The notes beneath the pieces are model-generated. The model did not search any database. It was not told the DNA's origin and saw nothing but the letters and a program-made list of their open reading frames with translations. Below, one piece after another: positions 1 to 60,402 of a stretch of 64,000 bases of DNA. The stretch comes from a virus (Duplodnaviria > Caudoviricetes). The DNA is taken from the IMG/VR virus record IMGVR_UViG_3300014057_000005, positions 1-64,000 of that record; one strand, 5' to 3'. Within the stretch, counting starts at the first letter, position 1; every line of letters begins with the position of its first letter. A program made the position numbers and the translations under genes.

Positions 1-1295
1 GCTTTACAAAAGTGTTATTTTCAGACTTTTCACGCTATTCTGATATTTTAGAATTGCCTGACTTTTCGCTCTATTCTGATTTTAACATGGTATACATTAC
101 CGTTTGACGTAGTTTTTGTTACTACTTTTAACGCGGTATTTGATACTTTTTAACGTGGTTTTTAATGCTATTACATGTAGTTTTAAATACTATATGCAAA
201 ATTTTTTTTAGGGAAAACAAAACTTTTTTGTACGGAATCCGGAACTTAACACTTTTGTAACATTTTAAGATTTTACAATCATTGCATGATATCATGTTTA
301 AACATATTTATTTTGGAAAAATGCACAAAGTACGATATGGCCGCGCGGGGGGACGTTTCGGATTGTTAAACACGTCTAACTGACCGGAACGGATGGATGT
401 GCCTCCCCCACTCAGCATGCCATTTTGTAACACCTCTTTCCTCTCTCACCACTTTCAATCCCCTGTCAGAGGGGTCGCAGTGGGAGTTCCGGCGCAATCG
501 AGGGCGTTTTTAGGGCAGGTCGGGGATACCCCATGGGGGTATATGATGAATACCGTTCGGTTTTTTAATACCTAACGGTCTTGGGGAAACGGGCGGGTTG
601 GGGCGGCGATCATGGCGTTTGTGGGCGCGGTCGCCAAGAGAGGAAGTTGTTGGGCGGGGTTGAGGTTGGGGCGCAGTGTGGGGGTTTTCTACTTGCCTAG
701 TGGTTTAGTAGGTAAATAGGCGTGGGTTTCGGAGGGATCCGCAGCGGGTTGGAAGTCTGGAGAGCCAGAGGTTCCGGGCGGACGCGTCTTTCAGAATCTA
801 TAATTTCTATGCATTTTAGTCGCATTATAAGGTATATTTATGCAATTTATGCATATATCCATATGCTTATTAGCAAAAATTAATTGGCGGTTCTGCCAGC
901 CTTACTTTACCCTGTATTTAAGTGTCGGCTCCGATGCTAACACCATGCGGCGGATGCTCATGAAGCTGCTCCCGCCGCCACTTAAATTTTAATACTACTA
1001 CTCTTCGCCAAGTATACAGTGGAACGTAAGCAGTCCCTAAAACCCTAAAGGTGTCTTGATTTTGGGTAGCCAGAACTGAAAAGGCGTCTTGGTCGTTCGA
1101 CAGATAAGGTTCCTTACTTTTATTATAATGAAAATGGTCGGAGCCTTTTTGGTTGAATACCGCGTCCCGTTAAGGCGTGAGGCGCGATTACCGCTTTACC
1201 TAGATCTGCCCTGAAGGTCTTAGGTGCTGACGCAATTATTCATTTCTACTTCTGGCGACCAAATATTATTTTTAAAATTTCATCCGCAGAATAAT

Positions 1296-1712
1296 ATACC
1301 TTACCAGTATACTGATAAGGTTTAGTATATACCTTTCAGTATACTAATAAGGTTTAGTATACACCTTTCAGTATACTAATAAGGTTTATTATATTATATA
1401 TTATACCTATAAGGTTATTTAGAAGAAAGATATATTATACCTATAAGGTTATATTATTATATATAATATAGAAACCTATAAGGTTATATATACTAATAAT
1501 CTTATACCTATAAGGTATATTAAATAATACTATTCAGTATACTTATAAGGTTTATTATATACTACTTTCAGTATACCTATAAGGTTTATATGTATTATAT
1601 ATAATATACCTATAAGGTTTATTATTATATATATTATACCTATAAGGTATATAATATTATATAATATATACCTTTAAGGTATAAACTATATATAATATAC
1701 CTTTAAGGTATA
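1296..1712. repeat. Phased array of 13 imperfect palindromic sites (core TACCTATAAGGT) in AT-rich DNA; candidate origin/iteron or centromere-like array
   Basis: AAGGT half-sites at 1317,1349,1381,1411,1445,1480,1512,1547,1581,1614,1644,1676,1705 (29-35 bp period); ACCT-NNN-AGGT dyad in most copies. Confidence 0.85.
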
Positions 1713-1732
1713 TTATACTATATAAATATATA

Positions 1733-1761
1733 AAAATATCATATAATCCTCATATTGTCAA
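1733..1761 (-). promoter_or_regulatory. Leftward sigma-A-type promoter pointing into the repeat array
   Basis: TTGACA-17 nt-TATTTT with extended TG on the - strand. Confidence 0.45.
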
Positions 1762-2030
1762 GACCTAATTTGCCGATTCTTTGTATTTTTGCCAGAACAA
1801 TCCTTAATCGTCCCATCATCCTCCCTTTCTCTTCTGGCGATTTATTATACCAGACATGAAGTTAGAAACCTTACTAGAATAGTGTAGTAAGAATTCCTTC
1901 TGTGCAGGAAATCAATACAAGGTGCCGCGCCGAGTGCCGAAAACAGCCGTTTACGACCTCAAACATAATCTTGCGGATCCGTTTGTCCTATGTCTTTTTA
2001 CTCCCGAAAAAACAATAGTCCAAATTAATC

Positions 2031-2059
2031 TTGACAATATGATTTCAATAGGCTATAAT
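2031..2059 (+). promoter_or_regulatory. Consensus sigma-A promoter for the rha-RNAP unit
   Basis: TTGACA (2031-2036), 17 nt spacer, TATAAT (2054-2059). Confidence 0.85.
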
Positions 2060-2131
2060 ACCATTAGCGCGAGGAGGTGTGCGCAGCCAATTCGCAAAAC
2101 GTGATAATTGCTTATATAGGAAGGAGATCGC

Positions 2132-3130
2132 ATGAATCAGAGTCTGATGGTAGATGTGCATATGGACGGTAGGCATGGCGCGGTAACAACGAGCCGGAAT
2201 GTGGCGGATGTGTTTGGGAAACAGCACAAGAGTGTTCTGCGGAGCATTGAGAACCTCGATTTAGATCGGCACAATTTTGAGCAGATGTTCTATGAGACGG
2301 TTTCGCCGGACTCCTACGGGCGCAAGCAGAAGACCTATATTATGAATCGGGATGGTCTTTCTCTTCTGGCGATGGGGTTCACTGGCAAGGAAGCGATGCG
2401 CTGGAAGCTAAAGTACATTGAAGCCTTCAATCAGATGGAGCAGGCGGTTCGGTCGAAGCAGGTCGCTTCTAATCTAACAGCAGAACGGATCGGGGAACTC
2501 ATGAAGCAGGCGGCGCGAATTGCCGAAGAGGTGCGTGGGACTCCGTATGAAGCTGCGGTTCGGGCGCTGTGGGATACTCGTAGTGCGGCGGCTCCTTCTT
2601 TATTAGAAGAAAAGCATTCGGCAAAGCTGACCGCAAACCATACAGATTATAGAAGATACAGATGTGAGATCTATACCAACCAGAACCAGCGCGAAGCGAT
2701 CCGTCTAAACGCCAAGGCGTACGCGGCGGTCTGGAACTTCTACGCTAACTCTTATAATGCTTGGAGGCAGATGGGGAACGAACCGAAATCTTGGAACTGC
2801 TCTGTGTCGCCTGCGGCATTAAAGAAGACAGACGAGTACGGTTGGACGAAAGCAGCATCTTCTGTCGTTTTGGCGACCGCGATGTATTCCTTTGCAAGAG
2901 CCAGATACAATGAGCGCCGTATGATGCGCGATGAGGTTGTGAGGCTGTCGGTCAGTGGTAATCGCAATATCAGGGTCGGGAGCAACACGGTAACACTGCC
3001 GAAACTTGGTGTGCTGCGTACCACCACTCCTCTTTCTCTGTCTGGCGACATCCCGGTTCGTGCAAACCTGTCGGTTGAGAATGGTAAGTACATCCTTGAA
3101 CTTATTTGCAGAAAAGGAATTGCTTCATGA
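2132..3130 (+). CDS. Rha-family regulator fused to an IS605 TnpB-like N-terminal (HTH/REC/WED) module lacking RuvC
   Basis: Rha motifs TTSRNVADVFGKQHKSVLRSIE, YIMNRDGLSLLAMGFTGKEAMRWKLKYIEAFNQME; the C-terminal half resembles the TnpB N-terminus; RBS AAGGAG. Confidence 0.75.
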   Translation: MNQSLMVDVHMDGRHGAVTTSRNVADVFGKQHKSVLRSIENLDLDRHNFEQMFYETVSPDSYGRKQKTYIMNRDGLSLLAMGFTGKEAMRWKLKYIEAFNQMEQAVRSKQVASNLTAERIGELMKQAARIAEEVRGTPYEAAVRALWDTRSAAAPSLLEEKHSAKLTANHTDYRRYRCEIYTNQNQREAIRLNAKAYAAVWNFYANSYNAWRQMGNEPKSWNCSVSPAALKKTDEYGWTKAASSVVLATAMYSFARARYNERRMMRDEVVRLSVSGNRNIRVGSNTVTLPKLGVLRTTTPLSLSGDIPVRANLSVENGKYILELICRKGIAS

Positions 3131-3399
3131 TTTATAATGAACTTCACGACAACACGCTTGAGTTCTTCAGCGAAGACAATGTTGTTGTTGCCTCTATCCA
3201 TAGGGCAAAATTCAAAAACAGGATTCTTTCTCTGGCGAAGAAGCACCCGGATGTGTGCGATGTGGTTGAGAATGCGGACGGCACAATCTGCGCCCACTTC
3301 CCTCTCTCTTGGATCAAGATCACGCCGCCAAGAGAAATGACAGCGGAACAGCGCGAGGCGGCTAGGCAAAGACTTCTTGCTTCGCGCCAGACGCAATAG
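3127..3399 (+). CDS. Small hypothetical phage protein
   Basis: ATG overlaps the upstream stop (ATGA); ends in REMTAEQREAARQRL. Confidence 0.7.
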   Translation: MIYNELHDNTLEFFSEDNVVVASIHRAKFKNRILSLAKKHPDVCDVVENADGTICAHFPLSWIKITPPREMTAEQREAARQRLLASRQTQ

Positions 3400-3524
3400 T
3401 AATAGGGCGGTATTTTACCCAAATTTTAAAATAGCGGTTGGGTAGGATAACTTGCTCCACCGCGAATAACAATTTGAAATTTACTGAAAATAACCTAGTC
3501 TTAGCTTAGAAAGGAGAAGGTCTT

Positions 3525-6386
3525 ATTTCTTTAAAGCCAAATAAGCATACTCGGTATATTTACAAAATAGATACCGAACTTCTAAAGCGGGCCGACTGGG
3601 ATCTTCGCCTGAATTTGGAAGATGCGATCATAAACGAATTACTCGTGCCGATGGCGGATAGCGAGGTGTTCCGGGCGATTGACCGTTATAACAACGCGTT
3701 CGACATTGACGATGCGATAACAGACGTCAACCGGGAGATCCGGCGCTTGCGGAAGCTTGGACAAACGCCAGAAGCGAAAGACCAGATTCGCATACAGTAT
3801 TTGCGTCTTTACCGTATCGGTCTGCAACAGGACTATATGGAACTCGTGGTCAAAAACCCCAATGACTATCGGAAAGCTTCTAGGTCTGGCTTCTATATTA
3901 ATGGAGTAAAATATGTAAGACTGCTCGGGACTACAGGCGGTATTAAGAACAGTGTTGTTGTTTTCTGCTCGGAGCGTGTTCATGTATATCTTAGGGAGTT
4001 TCTGGATTGTGGGCGCGATACGACAAAAGAACTTGTGCCTGCAAAGTTTGGGGCGTATGAAGCACTAGCGTGTTCCTCTTCTGTTCCCGTTTCTGCTCCA
4101 CGCGGAATCATTGTTGTGCCGGATTGTATGACCTCGTTCGTTGAGGACGTTGTAACTATAAATGATGGCGACGATGGCGGAGAGCCGGTTGTTGCCGAAC
4201 AGGACGGATATGAGTTTCGACACGATGCCTCTGATGGCTTTGGTACGATGACACCGGAGCAGGCCGAGGTGTGGAGCCGCGAACTTCGTCTCGATTATGT
4301 GATGAGCGGTTGCAACACACGATATGCCTTCGAAAAAGGAATGCTCGTAGTGTTTGACCATATTGCCTTTGCGGAGCAGGTTCGCGGGGCAGATCCGGTA
4401 ACTAATCCCGATGGCTATCTGGTAAAGGATGTGTGGGGCTGTGTTCGGGATGTTAGAGACGCGAGTGTTGTCCTAACAGAGTCCATGCTTAAGCTTTGGG
4501 ACTCATATTCTTCTATGGAGTCTTATCTGGAATGTTGTAATCGTTATGGCTATAGTTTTTCAGTAACGAAAGTCCCGCCGAATAAACTGGAGAATACGTG
4601 GACGACCAACTATCAGTTCCTTCAAGGTTTTGACTTTACGGATGAGGATATTGATGAGTTTATTGCTCCAACGCTTGCCAAGTTTGATGATGTCTTTGGT
4701 GGCGACTACAGGAAAGCACTTGTATACCTTAATGGTCAAAACGCGACGCTTAAGACCTATCTGTCGCAAGATAACCCGGTCATTAAGGCGCTGATGGTCG
4801 ATCCAAACATTATTAACGATGGCGTTGTATCTGCGATCATTCGGCGAATGATTCGGAAGCAGATTGACGAAGCAAAGATGGGTAAGATTGATGTGCATGG
4901 GCATTTCGAGGTTGCCTGCGGGGATCCATATGCGCTATGGCAAAGTATTTTTGGGCTAGAAGTCACTGGTCTTTTAAAGGCTGGCGAGGTCTATTCGAAG
5001 TATTGGTCTGACAGCCGCTCACGCTCTGTTCTTGTATTTCGCGCTCCGATGACCTGCTTCGCCAATATTCGCAAGATGGATGTCGCATATGACCTTGAAA
5101 AGGAGTATTGGTATCAGTACATTCGGACAATGGTGGTCTTCAACGCATGGGATAGTTCGTGCGATGCCTTGAATGGCGAGGATTTTGACGGGGATATGAA
5201 TTTCTTAACGGACGATCCTATTCTAATGCGCAATTATCACCACGAAAAAACAATTGTCTGTATGCAGCGCAAGGCAGCCAAGTCTGTTGTGACCGACGAG
5301 AAGCTTGTAGAAAGCAATATCGCCACATTTGGCAATGAGATTGGTCAAATTACTAATCGCGCCACCGAACTCTACGACATCCGCTCAACAGTCGATCCCG
5401 AATCTTTCTTATATAAGTTGATCTCAGACCGGATTATGTGTATGCAGCATTATCAACAGTGCGCTATCGACAAAGCCAAAGGCATCAAGGCGGATCCTAT
5501 GCCAAAGAGTTGGTATGAGGGCAGGTTCATAAAGAGCAACGATGATGATACGGTCGCTCTCCGGTTCAGAAAGTATATTGACAATCAGATTGTCGCCGAG
5601 CAAAAGCCGCACTTTATGATTTATAAGTACACGACGCTTAAGAGTCAGTGGCGAAAATATCTGCGCGGGTGTCAGACTGGAAGCCAGATAAAGTTCGGGA
5701 AGTCTCTTTCGGATTTGCTTGGCAATTTCGAAGATCTGTCGCCAGAAGAGAAAGTGTTTGTACGGTATTATGTGAGGCTTGCGCCTGTTAGTAATTATAA
5801 CCATATTGTAAATCGCATTTGCGGTCGTGTCGAAAGCAGATATGACAATAAGAAGAAGTGGCAGACGAGCGGGGCGTATGACTACCACACTCTCCTATCT
5901 GGCGAACGGTACGAACAGAAGGAGTATGGGGAGGCAAAGCGTGTTCTTACAGACTTGTTTAACGCCTACGCGGAAGCTGTCGGTGCGATGAAGGCAGATG
6001 GGGACTATATGCTTGCGGAGCAAAACGCAAAGCGCGACCAACGCCACATGCTGGAGTCCTATTTTCGGGAACAGTGCATCGTGGCATGTTCAGATGACAA
6101 CCTGCGCGTTGACGTGCTGATAGATATTTGCTACAACGCCGGTACTCGTCAGCCAAGGGAATTCGTTTGGCGAATGTGTGGCGATGATATTGTACGCCGT
6201 CTTCTCTTGCGCACCGGCAAAATTTGTGTTCCGATGCAAGCTGCGCCCGATGAGGAGTACGATTTTGAGTACTGTGGCAATCGCTATGTCATGATAAAAC
6301 AGGAGGTTGAGATTGATCCAGCCGTTTTTGAACCAGAAGAAACGGGCGGAGTGGATGCTGATGCAGACCTCGCCGATGAAAATTGA
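3525..6386 (+). CDS. yonO: YonO-like single-subunit DNA-dependent RNA polymerase (related to cellular RdRPs); probable ATT start
   Basis: Catalytic DFDGD loop (LNGEDFDGD), SDGFG, KGML, FRAP and AIDKAKG motifs; SPbeta-like position before the head genes; open frame extends to ATT at 3525 behind AAGGAG. Confidence 0.85.
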   Translation: MSLKPNKHTRYIYKIDTELLKRADWDLRLNLEDAIINELLVPMADSEVFRAIDRYNNAFDIDDAITDVNREIRRLRKLGQTPEAKDQIRIQYLRLYRIGLQQDYMELVVKNPNDYRKASRSGFYINGVKYVRLLGTTGGIKNSVVVFCSERVHVYLREFLDCGRDTTKELVPAKFGAYEALACSSSVPVSAPRGIIVVPDCMTSFVEDVVTINDGDDGGEPVVAEQDGYEFRHDASDGFGTMTPEQAEVWSRELRLDYVMSGCNTRYAFEKGMLVVFDHIAFAEQVRGADPVTNPDGYLVKDVWGCVRDVRDASVVLTESMLKLWDSYSSMESYLECCNRYGYSFSVTKVPPNKLENTWTTNYQFLQGFDFTDEDIDEFIAPTLAKFDDVFGGDYRKALVYLNGQNATLKTYLSQDNPVIKALMVDPNIINDGVVSAIIRRMIRKQIDEAKMGKIDVHGHFEVACGDPYALWQSIFGLEVTGLLKAGEVYSKYWSDSRSRSVLVFRAPMTCFANIRKMDVAYDLEKEYWYQYIRTMVVFNAWDSSCDALNGEDFDGDMNFLTDDPILMRNYHHEKTIVCMQRKAAKSVVTDEKLVESNIATFGNEIGQITNRATELYDIRSTVDPESFLYKLISDRIMCMQHYQQCAIDKAKGIKADPMPKSWYEGRFIKSNDDDTVALRFRKYIDNQIVAEQKPHFMIYKYTTLKSQWRKYLRGCQTGSQIKFGKSLSDLLGNFEDLSPEEKVFVRYYVRLAPVSNYNHIVNRICGRVESRYDNKKKWQTSGAYDYHTLLSGERYEQKEYGEAKRVLTDLFNAYAEAVGAMKADGDYMLAEQNAKRDQRHMLESYFREQCIVACSDDNLRVDVLIDICYNAGTRQPREFVWRMCGDDIVRRLLLRTGKICVPMQAAPDEEYDFEYCGNRYVMIKQEVEIDPAVFEPEETGGVDADADLADEN

Positions 6387-7248
6387 TGGGCAATTCTATT
6401 ATGATATCAATATTGTTGCCTGTTATTTCCTAAGTTGCGGGAATAGCGATGAGGAAATTTCGGAAATGCTCCATACCCTGATTGCACGTTTCGACAAAAA
6501 TTATAAAAAGCGAAACTGGGAAGAAAGAGTGGCTCAAATAGTACAGACCGCGCACCGTCGCAGGCTTATCGAAATTGATGCGTTGCCCGTATACCAAAGC
6601 GAGATGGAGCAGATTCAGAAGCTGCGCGGCAAGACAGTCCAAAAAATAGCGTTTACTGCTTTGGCCATTGCAAAATACAATAACGTCCTGCACGAGACAA
6701 ACGAAGGCTGGGTTAATATAACACCGAGCGATTTATTCACTCTGGCTAATGCTTCTGCGTCTTCGGTACAGAAGACAAAGATGCTTAGAGACTTAATGCT
6801 TGGCGGTCTGATTAAGATGTCGAACAAGGTGGATTCGACAAATTTTCGAGTACTGTTCCTAAGCACCGGCAACAATGATGATTTGATCGTCTACGATATA
6901 ACGGATCTGCGTAATCTTGGTTATGCATACGAGGAAGCCTTTGGTGGCAAGTTTGACAGGTGTGAGGTGTGTGGCAGGCTAATTCGTCGGCTGAAACGTA
7001 AACGTCATTACTGTAATGATTGCATCACAAAGTATGGCTATAAGGACACCGGGAGAGTTCGAAAGCCAGCCGGTGTATATATTGTCAGCTGTGTGGATTG
7101 CGGTCATTCGTTTTTAGTCGATGGAAAAGCGTTTGGGAAAAAGGTCAGATGTGATGAGTGTCAACACAGGCGCGATCTCGAATTGACCCGCGAACGGATG
7201 CGTAGGGTGCGCGAGGAAAATTCTTGTTACGCTGACAACTTGCAGTAA
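6313..7248 (+). CDS. Protein downstream of the RNAP with C-terminal Zn-finger (four CxxC pairs)
   Basis: CEVC, CNDC, CVDC, CDEC; TTG start 6 nt after AGGAGG; overlaps the RNAP end. Confidence 0.7.
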   Translation: MIQPFLNQKKRAEWMLMQTSPMKIDGQFYYDINIVACYFLSCGNSDEEISEMLHTLIARFDKNYKKRNWEERVAQIVQTAHRRRLIEIDALPVYQSEMEQIQKLRGKTVQKIAFTALAIAKYNNVLHETNEGWVNITPSDLFTLANASASSVQKTKMLRDLMLGGLIKMSNKVDSTNFRVLFLSTGNNDDLIVYDITDLRNLGYAYEEAFGGKFDRCEVCGRLIRRLKRKRHYCNDCITKYGYKDTGRVRKPAGVYIVSCVDCGHSFLVDGKAFGKKVRCDECQHRRDLELTRERMRRVREENSCYADNLQ

Positions 7249-7438
7249 TAAAAAAAATAAAATCCCCTATATGGGGAATTAAAATTGGGTCGTGTCTGTT
7301 ATCTTTAATGGATAGGGAAATAATATAGGTTATTTCTGTTATCACACAAATGTTTAGAATTCGCGTTTATCGCGCCTCGTGCAAGGATCAGACGCGTCTA
7401 AGATAATACGAGGCTCCCGGGTTACAGGCTCGGGACAT

Positions 7439-7509
7439 GTCTGCTTGGTGTAAGTCCGGCAGCACAACTGGCGTCCCCAGAGATCCGTGTTCAAATCGCG
7501 GAGCAGACA
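7439..7509 (+). ncRNA. tRNA-like RNA with shortened (13-nt) anticodon arm
   Basis: Acceptor GTCTGCT/AGCAGAC, D stem GTGT/GCAC, T arm CCGTG-TTCAAAT-CGCGG, anticodon arm CTGGCGTCCCCAG. Confidence 0.65.
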
Positions 7510-7592
7510 TTGATTCCATGCAACTGCGTATTCGCAGTAATAAATCTTCCTTTAGTTATAAGGGTTTGTGGGATTGCGCACATCCTACAACG

Positions 7593-7660
7593 CGAGGCTT
7601 AGTTTAAGTAGTAAAACGAGTTCCCAGAACTTATTGCCGGTGCAAGTCCGGCAGTCTTGT
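7593..7660 (+). ncRNA. Second tRNA-like RNA with shortened (13-nt) anticodon arm
   Basis: Acceptor CGAGGCT/AGTCTTG, D stem GTTT/AAAC, T arm GCCGG-TGCAAGT-CCGGC, anticodon arm AGTTCCCAGAACT. Confidence 0.6.
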
Positions 7661-7708
7661 TTAAGCCACAAATTGTGGCATGAAAAAGCAGCCAGAGGTG
7701 AATTAGTC

Positions 7709-9163
7709 ATAGCCAAGAAAAAAGTGAAAGGCGGAGACGGGGTGTATTTGCTTGGTCAGTCCGCCAATACAGTGACCGGATCTTTGTATCTGGTAAAGTT
7801 TGGTGATAAGCGAATCGTCCTTGACGCTGGCCTATACCAATCTGCAAGCAATTCTTACCTCGACAACTACAAAGTCAATTCTCGAAAAATCGAATCCGAT
7901 GTGATTAAGGCGGATTATCTGCTCATCTCCCATCCGCATATTGACCATGTTGGCCTAGTACCGAGATTATACAGGCTTGGTTTTCGTGGTCGTGTTATAT
8001 CTACCAAGGAAACAAAAATATTTGCCAGAGATCTTTTGCTGAATAGCGCCGGAATACTGGCAGGCGAGGCGAGACTGCTCTCAAAGAAGTATTCGCGTAA
8101 TTATGAGCCGATATACACAGAGGCTGATGTGAATAGCTCTTTAGAACTATTTGAAACATACAACAACTACAACGAGACGGTATCGCTTGATGATACGGTC
8201 TCTATTTTTATGCTTCCTAATTCGCACTGTCTTGGCGCGGTGCAGTACCTTATCACATTAAAGGACGAGCGAAAAACGCGGCGGATCCTTTTCACTGGCG
8301 ATATAGGGAGGCTTCACGATAATGCCAACCATTATGTTTCAAAGAGTGGCATTCTGGATAGGCGTGTAGATTTGGTACTGAGCGAGGCAACCTACGGGCT
8401 TGGCGATAGGGATACTAAACGCAAGAGACAACAGGATATTGGAATCCTAAAACAGTACATTCAAAGCACAGTTGAACGAGGCGGCTCTGTAGTAATGCCG
8501 GTGTTTGCATTTTCGAGGTCGTCTGAGGTGCTCACGGAATTGTACCTAGCGTTTAAGGATGACGAGAATTTCAAGATCCCTGTGATTGTAGATGGCGTTT
8601 TGAGCGCACAGATGTTTCGCGATTACGAGAAGGTCTTAGACGGTGAGGATCTTTGCCTTTGGCAAGATGTTCTGTCTTGGAAAAATTTACGAATTATTGA
8701 AGATAAGAAAGAGTCTGACAGGCAAGTTGCATCGGCAGAGCAAGCTATCATCCTCTCCTCTTCTGGCTTTATGACGAACGGTCGAATCCTTCAATATGCC
8801 GCGAAGTATTTGCCAGATGGAAAATCGACATTCGTTTTCACAGGGTGGGCCGGATCCAACCCTACTTATCTAAGCTACAAAATTAAAAACGCCAAGAAAT
8901 GCGATTCAATTAAGATTGCCGGGAGGCAGGTGCGGTGTCGCGCCGATTGTGTTTCTCTGCAAACCTTTAGTTGCCATATGGACGCAAAGGGTCTGCAAGA
9001 ATATTTGGGTGGTAAATATTTTGATGCCACCAAGATTTGCTTAGTGCATGGAGATGAAGATGCAAAAATTGCACTAAAGGCAAGGTTACAATGTGAATTG
9101 TCAAAGAACAATAAGAGCACCAGAGTGGTAATTGGGGCGCTTGGTTCTGTTCTGAGGCTTTGA
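7709..9163 (+). CDS. MBL-fold beta-CASP nuclease (CPSF73/YSH1-like); probable ATA start
   Basis: VTGS, LDAG, HPHIDH, FTGDIG, SEATYG, PVFAFSR, SSSGF, FSCH and LVHGD motifs; GAGGTG RBS 8 nt before ATA at 7709. Confidence 0.85.
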   Translation: MAKKKVKGGDGVYLLGQSANTVTGSLYLVKFGDKRIVLDAGLYQSASNSYLDNYKVNSRKIESDVIKADYLLISHPHIDHVGLVPRLYRLGFRGRVISTKETKIFARDLLLNSAGILAGEARLLSKKYSRNYEPIYTEADVNSSLELFETYNNYNETVSLDDTVSIFMLPNSHCLGAVQYLITLKDERKTRRILFTGDIGRLHDNANHYVSKSGILDRRVDLVLSEATYGLGDRDTKRKRQQDIGILKQYIQSTVERGGSVVMPVFAFSRSSEVLTELYLAFKDDENFKIPVIVDGVLSAQMFRDYEKVLDGEDLCLWQDVLSWKNLRIIEDKKESDRQVASAEQAIILSSSGFMTNGRILQYAAKYLPDGKSTFVFTGWAGSNPTYLSYKIKNAKKCDSIKIAGRQVRCRADCVSLQTFSCHMDAKGLQEYLGGKYFDATKICLVHGDEDAKIALKARLQCELSKNNKSTRVVIGALGSVLRL

Positions 9164-25679: not shown

Positions 25680-26711
25680 ATGAATGGCATTAAACATAAC
25701 GAACCTATCTCCGAAGAGCGGTGGAATAAGGTTTGTGAGTTTAATAGACAACTTTACGATGATTACTTTATAGACAACGTAGAGTTGTCGAACGCCACAC
25801 GAACCGCCTATAGAAGTTATCTTAGGATTTGGTTTGTATATGTGGCAGAGAATTTAGGGAACAAGAAACAGGTCGACATAAAAAGTCGCGATTACAAGCG
25901 GTTCCAAAACTACCTTGTAGATCGCGGCATGAGTTATTCTGGAATTTCAACACAGCGGAGCGCCATCTCCTCTCTCAACTTCTATATTGAGACATACTAC
26001 GAGGACGAGTATCCGATGTTTCGGAACTTTATCACGAAGGCAATCCCGAAGCCAGAGAAGAGTTATGTAAACAAGAAGGTGCCGCCGACACGCGAGGAAC
26101 TTGACGAGATGATTCGTAAACTCGAGGAAGGGAACCGAAAAGATAAATATCAGCTAATCTGCTATTTGAAATTCACATTTGATACTGGATGCAGACGCGC
26201 TGAGACGCGCCAGCTTCTGAAGGACGTGGTGAATTCGGATCCTGTTGTGCGAAAAATCACCGCCCACGACCGTGAAGGAAATAAGATTGAGCGTGAATCA
26301 CGGTACTATGTGACGAACGAGATTCGTTGCAAGGGGCGCGGTAAGACTGGCAAGGTTCGCAAGTTGAAGTTTTCAGAAGATACGATGTTGGCTATTAAAA
26401 AGTGGCTGGAAGTCAGAGGCGAGGATGATTGCCCGTATGTATTTACGAGCGGACGCGGAGAAAACGCGAGGCAGGTCTCTGTGGTGACAATCAATAAGTG
26501 GTGCAGTACCGTCTTCACAGACTTGCTCGGACGCAGATTTCACCCTCACATTTTAAGAGAGGCGAGGGCGACTGATGCGGCAATTGAGCAAGGGAGACCG
26601 ATAGAACAGATTGCTTCTCTTCTTGGCCATAATTCAACAGAAACAACAAAAATTTATATCTGCAACGATGAAGACGTTGAGGAATCTGACGCTCTGTTTG
26701 CAGATTTCTAA
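25680..26711 (+). CDS. Tyrosine recombinase within the tail module
   Basis: TGCRRAE, KGRG, HILR, LLGHNS and TKIY catalytic set. Confidence 0.85.
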   Translation: MNGIKHNEPISEERWNKVCEFNRQLYDDYFIDNVELSNATRTAYRSYLRIWFVYVAENLGNKKQVDIKSRDYKRFQNYLVDRGMSYSGISTQRSAISSLNFYIETYYEDEYPMFRNFITKAIPKPEKSYVNKKVPPTREELDEMIRKLEEGNRKDKYQLICYLKFTFDTGCRRAETRQLLKDVVNSDPVVRKITAHDREGNKIERESRYYVTNEIRCKGRGKTGKVRKLKFSEDTMLAIKKWLEVRGEDDCPYVFTSGRGENARQVSVVTINKWCSTVFTDLLGRRFHPHILREARATDAAIEQGRPIEQIASLLGHNSTETTKIYICNDEDVEESDALFADF

Positions 26712-54529: not shown

Positions 54530-55753
54530 TCAGCCACACGCCGCCTCAAACAGCTTTATCGCTTCTAGCTTTGAGTCGTCGCTGACATGAACGTAAGTGT
54601 CCATTGTTGTTTTAATTGACGCATGCCCGAGCAGTTGTTGCAGAACTTTGGGCGGGACTCCGCGCTCAATTGCTCTCGTAGCGAACGTATGTCGCAGTGC
54701 ATGCATGCTGAATGGTTTAATGCCTGCCTCTTGGCAGAGCTTATACAGGTGTGTGTCGTAGGAGCTACTCTTCGCTGGCATACCGACCCGCCAGTTAATG
54801 AAGACGAGATCCTTCATACAGAAACTTATCGTCTCCCCTGTGTATCGGTCTGTATACCGCAACTCCTGTTCAAGCTGTGGCGACCTTTTTTGCGTGTCGC
54901 GCTCGTTGTAAATGTCGAGCAAAATCTGATACGCCCGCGTCGTCAACGGAATCACACGGTAACTCGTTGGTGTTTTTGGCGCTCCGGCATACCACTCTCC
55001 GCGAGAGTGCCTATACTCAAGCGTCTTATTAACCGTGATTGTGCGATTCTGAAAGTTAACTGCGTCCCATGTAAGCCCGACCAGTTCTCCCATTCGCAAA
55101 CCAGTCTCAAGGACAAATGCGTATTGCCTATAGTTATGAGAGCGCTTCGCGACCTGTAAGAATAGCTCTTGTTCGCTGGCTGTTAGATACCGCACCGCCG
55201 ATGCCTTGCGAACCGCCTTGGTATAACGTACGCCGTCCATTGGGTGTTTCACAATCACATCATTCATTTTGGCGGACTTAAACATCGTCCCCATCATGAT
55301 GTATGTCTGCCTGATTGTAGATCCCGCGTAATCGGCATCCATGTCGGCCAGAATCTTGCGGCAATGCAGTGCTTTCACATCGCGAATACGCATGTTGCCA
55401 ATCAATGGTTTGACGTTCGCCACATACCGATCCCGGTAATTACGCCTTGTGTTCCACGCCAACCCGGCATTCATGGTGTCCATCCACAGCGTATACCATT
55501 CGTCAACCGTCATTTCCGACATTTCGCTCGGACAGCTGTCTCCCAAACTGGCTACCATCTCAAATGGCGCTAGTGCAGTCTCGTGAGCACTTTTGTATCT
55601 GGCATCCGCCAACCAACTTTTCGCCTCTTTCAGTGAAGGGAAGTACTTCTCGACACGCCTACCTGCTTTGTTTGTAAACCTTGCTGAATATCTACCATCC
55701 TTTCTTTGTGAGAGACCCTCGCCTATCTCTCTGCCTTTTAGGTTTTTGCCCAC
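54530..55753 (-). CDS. int: Phage integrase (tyrosine recombinase)
   Basis: QRKDGRY arm-binding domain, TGLRMGE, PKT, HALRHTFATR, LLGH, TMDTY; GTG start after GAAAGGAG. Confidence 0.92.
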   Translation of the reverse strand: MGKNLKGREIGEGLSQRKDGRYSARFTNKAGRRVEKYFPSLKEAKSWLADARYKSAHETALAPFEMVASLGDSCPSEMSEMTVDEWYTLWMDTMNAGLAWNTRRNYRDRYVANVKPLIGNMRIRDVKALHCRKILADMDADYAGSTIRQTYIMMGTMFKSAKMNDVIVKHPMDGVRYTKAVRKASAVRYLTASEQELFLQVAKRSHNYRQYAFVLETGLRMGELVGLTWDAVNFQNRTITVNKTLEYRHSRGEWYAGAPKTPTSYRVIPLTTRAYQILLDIYNERDTQKRSPQLEQELRYTDRYTGETISFCMKDLVFINWRVGMPAKSSSYDTHLYKLCQEAGIKPFSMHALRHTFATRAIERGVPPKVLQQLLGHASIKTTMDTYVHVSDDSKLEAIKLFEAACG

Positions 55754-55841
55754 CTTGGTACTCCTTTCTCCAATGAAAAAAGAGTCCAAAACAACCATAT
55801 TATTATACTATGGGCGGACTCTTTTCTCAAGGTAGTTTCAC

Positions 55842-60229: not shown

Positions 60230-60402
60230 TATTCTCCTTTGCCAAAGAGGAAAGCTTTGTCGTTACACAGGTCTCTAACGTTCGTTCTCGTGATCCGCCC
60301 AGTATAGAGGCATGACGGGCATCGGTAATATTTAACGATTCGTCCCGGCTCGAAATGGTATGCGCGGTGCATCTTTATACCGCACTTCTTGCAAATCTTC
60401 AT
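60229..60402 (-). CDS. Small Zn-ribbon protein
   Basis: CKKC...CPSC; AAGGAG RBS. Confidence 0.6.
   Translation of the reverse strand: MKICKKCGIKMHRAYHFEPGRIVKYYRCPSCLYTGRITRTNVRDLCNDKAFLFGKGE

Follow-up and report, generated by a model that had tools for sequence, protein, structure and literature searches.

A phage Rha-family regulator in which a TnpB-derived recognition lobe stands in place of the usual C-terminal domain

Gene order and sequence elements around the fusion gene

The window analysed here is a stretch of 64,000 nt at the start of the IMG/VR record of a gut phage, which is 108,215 nt long and has an estimated completeness of 82%. It carries a gene whose 332-aa product (P0001) joins a Rha domain to the N-terminal part of TnpB, the nuclease of IS200/IS605 transposons; this gene and the features around it are listed in Table 1. 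As a preliminary description of this DNA had proposed, the gene is the first of a unit that reaches the phage RNA polymerase: a perfect sigma-70-type promoter is followed by the fusion gene, a 90-aa ORF (orf90) and the gene of a YonO-type single-subunit RNA polymerase. The coupling to the next gene described earlier was also present, with the stop codon of the fusion gene (TGA, 3128-3130) and the ATG of orf90 (3127) overlapping as ATGA. The orf90 product resembles small hypothetical phage proteins, and 215 nt separate its gene from that of the polymerase. The relatives of the polymerase are found in Enterocloster bolteae phages, in Clostridium phage c-st and in SPbeta (yonO). In the related Enterocloster phage PMBT24, the polymerase gene is not preceded by a Rha gene, indicating that the Rha gene and orf90 are specific to the lineage studied here.

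Table 1. Position of the fusion gene, its domains and the neighbouring features in the window
Feature	Position	Strand	Remarks
17-nt box CTTTCTCTTCTGGCGAT	1825..1841	+	between the divergent promoters; candidate binding site
Sigma-70-type promoter	2031..2059	+	TTGACA, 17 nt, TATAAT; 12/12; upstream of the fusion gene
Shine-Dalgarno-like GGAAGGAG	2119..2126	+	5 nt ahead of ATG 2132; read from the sequence
CDS of the Rha / TnpB recognition-lobe fusion (P0001)	2132..3130	+	ORF reading, 332 aa
Rha domain, residues 19-104	2186..2443	+	PF09669 and TIGR02681; also matched in six-frame search
17-nt box CTTTCTCTTCTGGCGAT, second exact copy	2357..2373	+	inside the Rha-domain coding region, codons 76-81
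Helical linker, residues 111-172	2462..2647	+	still common to ordinary Rha proteins; least conserved part
TnpB-derived recognition lobe, residues 173-332	2648..3127	+	profile, PDB and structural-model matches
90-aa ORF (orf90)	3127..3399	+	translationally coupled; without TnpB similarity
YonO-type single-subunit RNA polymerase gene	3615..6386	+	Pfam RdRP 2.2e-19; downstream, same orientation as the fusion gene

The polymerase ORF as called begins at a TTG codon, and its PHROG match starts only at profile position 32. Because a strong AAAGGAGAAGG also lies at 3510-3520, ahead of the called start, translation of the polymerase probably begins at an unusual codon (ATT) near 3525. Three tyrosine-recombinase genes, two in the window (25680-26711 and 54530-55798) and one farther along the record (79065-79547), suggest that the phage is temperate; one of the three sits amid tail-module genes.

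The promoter of the fusion gene is one of a divergent pair of sigma-70-type promoters. A 14-nt sequence, TCTTGACAATATGA, spans the -35 box of both the leftward promoter (1761-1733) and the rightward one (2031-2059), in inverted orientation, and is carried by an inverted repeat, I6 (1750-1782 / 2010-2042). The leftward promoter faces an AT-rich palindrome array at 1296-1712, in which the palindromic core TATACCTWTAAGGTATA recurs about 13 times at intervals of 30-35 bp, in DNA of 17-20% GC. An origin, a partition site and a packaging lattice are candidate functions for this array, which the preliminary description had also mentioned. Farther to the left, the region 300-830 is ORF-poor and has 51-60% GC, with a skew of G over C of 0.44 at 500-800; Rfam matched nothing there, and the folding z-scores of both strands were not significant.

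Several short sequences recur around the operon. Besides the two exact copies of the 17-nt box in Table 1, near copies of CTTTCTCTTCTGGCGAT were located at 1243, 3033, 3223, 3764 and 5738. The window has 18 copies of the octamer TCTGGCGA, where 2.1 are expected, and the 108-kb record has 33; the copies lie on either strand, fall in different reading frames and in many cases have a pyrimidine-rich 5' flank. An extended box, CTTTCTCTTCTGGCGA, was matched within 3 mismatches at 6 sites (0.4 expected), of which four lie in 1825-5754, and gapped variants of it occur at 1243, 3033 and 3223. The palindrome array has a box on either side. The TCTGGCGA and CTTTCTCTTCTGGCGA boxes possibly represent a Chi-like site or a protein-binding site. 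As candidate target sites of the fusion protein we regard the CTTTCTCTTCTGGCGAT box, the shared TCTTGACAATATGA and the 13 palindromes at 1296-1712. An operator copy inside the gene did not emerge as a general trait of Rha genes: in a crude test, which compared exact repeats between the Rha-domain region and its flanks, repeats of at least 14 nt were present in 4 of 74 Rha loci and in 11 of 189 controls, which is no enrichment.

Domain composition and predicted fold of the fusion protein

The N-terminal domain of P0001 scored 98.9 bits with PF09669 (Pfam cut-off, 29.9) and 85.4 bits with TIGR02681 (cut-off, 45.95). With its Rha domain above these curated cut-offs, P0001 is a Rha family phage regulatory protein. 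The similarity to ordinary Rha regulators (phrog_995) runs to residue 167. The nearest among thousands of Rha relatives end in a KilAC (PF03374) or ORF6C (PF10552) C-terminal domain, whereas neither domain was found in P0001 by Pfam at E <= 1. Among the best 120 of these thousands of relatives, the TnpB lobe was borne only by the clusters of the protein's own family (P0002 and P0003). The lobe stands in place of the usual C-terminal KilAC or ORF6C domain and is not added to it.

The C-terminal half (residues 173-332) shows collinear homology to the N-terminal ~175 residues of TnpB. The preliminary description had recognised TnpB motifs in this order from about residue 173 (nt 2648), and all four peptide strings that it quoted were found in the protein. 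In the profile searches, phrog_506, a TnpB family in which the TnpB of a Streptococcus thermophilus phage scores 3e-138, matched residues 171-328 with its positions 5-173 of 403 (E 6e-11), and the NCBIfam profile IS200_TnpB (NF038281) matched both P0001 (E 3.6e-7) and a sister protein of 74% identity (E 4e-5). Alignment by hhalign with 15 full-length TnpBs paired residues 176-330 with TnpB 8-165 at a probability of 93.7% (E 1.8e-7). When phmmer was run against the PDB, residues 10-174 of ISDra2 TnpB were matched (E 0.005), and the only other match was a designed derivative of TnpB. A tblastn search of 50,697 phage records (2.3 Gb) returned 17 matches at E <= 0.5, all of them on annotated transposase or mobile-element genes, and four weaker partial matches (E 2-6) on unrelated genes; in phage P7574, the match covers residues 6-165 of a 369-aa TnpB whose gene adjoins tnpA. 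The ESM-Atlas features led to clusters of 170-177-aa proteins, of which the first had HTH_OrfB_IS605 in 12% of its members and the second was automatically named "Transposase (Fragment)". The lobe keeps the LPKLG and GKY motifs of TnpB. Its identity to any TnpB found is about 25% at most.

For structure prediction, the lobe was aligned with three family members and 29 TnpB N-termini from bacterial genomes (alignment A2). AlphaFold2 gave a model with a pLDDT of 88.2 and a pTM of 0.84, which rests on this alignment seeded with TnpB N-termini. The single-sequence prediction was poor (pLDDT 38), but the order of its strands and helices nevertheless agreed with that of the A2 model. The top four Foldseek matches were all ISDra2 TnpB (E 3e-9, TM 0.70-0.75), including 8ex9, a 166-residue chain in which RuvC is unresolved. 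Furthermore, an exhaustive, unbiased VIA structural search of 48,161 chains placed 8h1j_A first (Z 17.5, rmsd 3.0 A), with 160 residues aligned to residues 1-179, and the top 26 rows of this search were all TnpB, Cas12 or Fanzor. In ISDra2 TnpB, WED consists of residues 1-12 and 117-176, REC of residues 13-116, and RuvC begins at residue 185 (PMC10097598). The match to residues 1-179, taken with these domain limits, indicates that P0001 carries exactly the recognition lobe (WED+REC). In accord with the WED/REC assignment made earlier, the C-terminal half is thus modelled as a complete recognition lobe, with the first WED strand at residues 173-181, the REC helices at 184-260 and the remaining WED barrel at 271-327.

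The nuclease half of TnpB is absent. Alignment A2 places the end of the protein 8-10 residues short of IGIDLG, the RuvC-I motif that holds the first catalytic aspartate, and no RuvC (PF01385) was found in a six-frame search of the whole 108-kb record; the stop ahead of RuvC-I had been noted in the preliminary description, as had the lack of a visible tnpA, and no Y1 transposase tnpA (PF01797) was found in a six-frame search of the 108-kb record. Over the same six frames, phrog_506 matched at 2642-3118 only, with nothing past profile position 174, and the TnpB lobe is present as a single copy in the record. The zinc-ribbon/TNB domain (PF07282) had no significant match in six frames of the 108-kb record, its one sub-threshold match (12.1 bits) lying at 60301-60399, about 57 kb from the fusion gene. 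Because the nuclease half is absent, P0001 is unable to cut DNA. The lobe is also without a segment of ~13 residues (NFF..GFPKFK) that is conserved in TnpBs, and this may alter its nucleic-acid contacts. The residues that read the TAM in ISDra2 are not conserved in the lobe; they differ as well in the active TnpBs that were compared.

Possible role of the recognition lobe

We consider it probable, at roughly 60%, that P0001 is a domain-swapped Rha regulator in which the lobe acts as a second, guide-free DNA-binding module. An ordinary Rha protein, consisting of the Rha domain and the helical linker, would have lost its C-terminal KilAC or ORF6C domain, and a complete TnpB WED+REC lobe, cut in the interlobe linker, would have taken that place, while RuvC, TNB and the transposon context disappeared. 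The lobe would then have been kept as a guide-independent basic module for binding nucleic acid, most likely double-stranded DNA. In TnpB, the TAM duplex sits in the cleft between WED and REC (PMC10097598), and contact through the same cleft could give the Rha domain a second hold on DNA. The protein would be made early from a host-type promoter, first in the unit that also encodes the phage RNA polymerase, and would probably regulate transcription around the switch from the host to the phage polymerase. The preliminary description had called the protein a domesticated TnpB DNA/RNA-binding module on a phage regulator. Its architectural part, a RuvC-less TnpB WED/REC fused to a Rha domain, stood; DNA rather than RNA binding, the regulatory role and the target sites are what we infer.

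A more specific form of this proposal concerns the boxes described above. The phage genome holds about ten times as many copies of the TCTGGCGA core of the CTTTCTCTTCTGGCGA boxes as expected, and these copies cluster around the operon. It is conceivable, if unlikely in this particular form, that the lobe is a guide-free sequence reader, or a recruiter of RNA made in trans, that brings the fusion protein to CTTTCTCTTCTGGCGA boxes of 16-17 nt and thereby times or targets the switch from the host to the YonO-type polymerase.

Alternatively, the lobe might hold RNA, be it an omegaRNA-like guide or a transcript of the phage or its host, so that the protein would be a cut-down TldR or an RNA-binding regulator of early transcripts. 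WED takes part in binding omegaRNA in TnpB, where it contacts stem 4 and the pseudoknot (PMC10097598), and the lobe is very basic. Moreover, the leftward promoter at 1761-1733 faces about 1.2-1.4 kb without an ORF of more than 60 aa, and boxes with the TCTGGCGA core lie on the sense strand of the operon mRNA. However, the omegaRNA scaffold of TnpB lies on a surface formed by WED and RuvC (PMC10097598), and in the binary complex of TldR with its guide RNA, only the RuvC helices of the protein were resolved, stabilised by guide-RNA binding (PMC13622181). Since P0001 does not have the RuvC portion of this RNA-binding surface, canonical guide-RNA loading appears unlikely. Nothing convincing as an omegaRNA-like element was found nearby: Rfam gave no match at E <= 1 in 1-8000, and the folding z-scores were just -0.7 to -2.1 (330-1290 on either strand and 3396-3620), with the region 3396-3620 at -2.07. 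In addition, the coupled ORF follows the gene directly and leaves no long 3' untranslated region. Dependence of the regulator on RNA is therefore improbable in our estimation.

The C-terminal domains of Rha/Ant-type proteins often mediate protein contacts, and they are variable, as the KilAC or ORF6C domains of the nearest relatives illustrate. The lobe could accordingly be a protein-binding or decoy module, which might serve in dimerisation, contact the phage or host RNA polymerase, or compete with host TnpB/Cas12 for TAM/PAM sites or guide RNA. The position of the gene immediately upstream of the phage RNA polymerase and the action of Cas12f as a dimer (PMC10097598) are consistent with such a role. 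Nevertheless, the net charge of the lobe, +14, is typical of the nucleic-acid-binding lobes of TnpB and favours nucleic acid as the ligand; the protein had no PADLOC match, and the data indicate no partner. We regard this explanation as quite improbable.

Persistence of the fusion and relation to known systems

Two clusters of full-length relatives were found, P0002 (99% identical, 52 member sequences) and P0003 (74%). There are 52 variants at >=90% identity; 15 of them were compared together with both sequences of the sister cluster (P0003 and P0135), 17 in all. The 15 variants were 331-332 aa long, except for one form of 231 aa from M102, and all shared an identical end; the sister lineage of 74% identity had the same length and stop. 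The lobe was intact in 17 of 17 sequences, and the sole indel was an in-frame one of 1 residue. The two lineages were 87% identical over the Rha domain, 56% over the linker and 72% over the lobe. The net charge of the lobe was +13 in the sister, compared with +12 to +23 in 35 real TnpB lobes. In GC content and GC3, the lobe equalled the Rha part and orf90, and in codon usage it fell within the range of the other phage genes. With 52 variants and a 74% sister, and with the stop and an intact lobe shared by the 17 sequences compared, the fusion is neither a singleton nor visibly decaying, the outcomes that the preliminary description had set against its reading.

The family is narrow and forms a single cluster at 50% identity. 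An exhaustive phmmer search with the lobe against 1.84 billion representatives found no relative outside its own 50%-identity cluster (that of P0002), and a word-based search with the lobe alone returned the clusters P0002 and P0003 only. No relative came up when IMG/VR was scanned with the lobe, P0003 or the polymerase, and a metagenome scan with Rha-domain peptides yielded ordinary Rha loci only, none of which bore the lobe. Because the nearest TnpBs are only about 25% identical and the composition of the lobe matches that of the neighbouring genes, the capture appears to be old. Taken as patterns in the proteins, these data argue for an old domain swap maintained by selection rather than for a recent IS scar.

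The lobe might instead be a neutral relic: a tnpB would have integrated at the 3' end of a Rha gene and been truncated, and the remnant would have persisted in frame with no separate function. Only one narrow phage lineage has the family, and IS200/IS605 elements do land beside Rha genes: on a 161-kb metagenome contig (L061:4241-6759), an element with a 138-aa tnpA and a 405-aa tnpB lies directly upstream of a Rha-KilAC gene and abuts it. The terminase of that contig is 52% identical to that of the phage studied here; its TnpB was ruled out as the donor, being unrelated to the lobe (pairwise E 1.0). A relic is very improbable, however, given that the lobe has remained intact with the same stop in a lineage at 28% amino-acid divergence, is better conserved than the linker, keeps its basic charge and the core residues conserved in TnpB, has fully ameliorated in composition with no closer TnpB at hand, and replaces the normal C-terminal domain rather than extending it. 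Least credible of all, and in our judgement highly implausible, is that the C-terminal half is not derived from TnpB but reflects chance, convergence or a diverged ORF6C-type Rha tail: Pfam HTH_OrfB_IS605 did stay below its cut-off (18.6 versus 21 bits) and the BLAST alignment with a Rha protein from an Enterococcus phage did reach weakly to residue 226, an extension judged to be chance, but four independent profile libraries or methods gave the in-order match over about 155 residues, the sister lineage likewise matched TnpB, ORF6C and KilAC were absent at E <= 1, and every structural neighbour down to Z 7 was a TnpB, Cas12 or Fanzor protein.

Compared with the TnpB of IS200/IS605 (ISDra2; PDB 8H1J/8EXA/8BF8), the lobe is homologous, is modelled with the same fold, retains LPKLG and GKY and is strongly basic. 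In contrast to TnpB, P0001 is without RuvC and its D-E-D catalytic triad, the TNB zinc finger, the C-terminal domain and the NFF..GFPKFK segment, has neither tnpA nor a detectable omegaRNA beside it, exists as a single copy, bears the lobe behind a Rha domain and is at most about 25% identical. With TldR (the fliC-, oppF- and csrA-associated clades; PMC13622181; exapted TnpBs in PMC10691335), it has in common that it is a TnpB derivative without nuclease activity and plausibly gene-regulatory, and one TldR clade is prophage-borne too. TldR, however, keeps two lobes, with a degenerate RuvC that touches a guide RNA encoded beside the gene (PMC13622181), whereas P0001 is without the entire NUC lobe, has no evident guide and presumably achieves recognition by protein, through the Rha domain and the lobe. 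Since the RuvC surfaces are gone and no structured RNA was found nearby, the comparison with TldR is an analogy of outcome and not of mechanism. With the Rha/Ant-type regulators (PF09669 with KilAC PF03374 or ORF6C PF10552), P0001 shares the Rha domain and linker, the plan of a conserved N-terminal module with an exchangeable C-terminal one, and the position among early genes of a probably temperate phage; it differs in that its C-terminal module comes from a transposon nuclease.

In a literature search, we found neither a Rha-TnpB fusion nor a TnpB derivative reduced to the recognition lobe, an absence that is not proof. In a term search of a survey of exapted TnpBs, the forms described were catalytically inactivated or still active, and no RuvC-less one was found (PMC10691335); a degenerate RuvC domain is present in the structural work on TldR (PMC13622181). 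The TnpB exaptations that we found described (Cas12 effectors, TldR, and the sigma-, SpoIIE- and MazE-associated forms) keep two lobes and, where studied, guide RNA. Here the recognition lobe alone survives; it is joined to a phage DNA-binding domain to which it is unrelated, and two diverged lineages have kept it, within a narrow family and with a function that we infer. If the lobe binds DNA by itself, TnpB/Cas12 would have in its TAM/PAM-reading half a DNA-recognition module that is autonomous and evolvable, which would bear on how the TnpB/Cas12 nucleases were assembled and on very small DNA-binding tools; should the reading of the CTTTCTCTTCTGGCGA boxes be true, the lobe would be an independently reusable DNA-recognition domain. 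For the phages themselves, the fusion offers a handle on the role of Rha-family regulators and on the early-to-late switch in phages with YonO-type polymerases, both of which are poorly understood.
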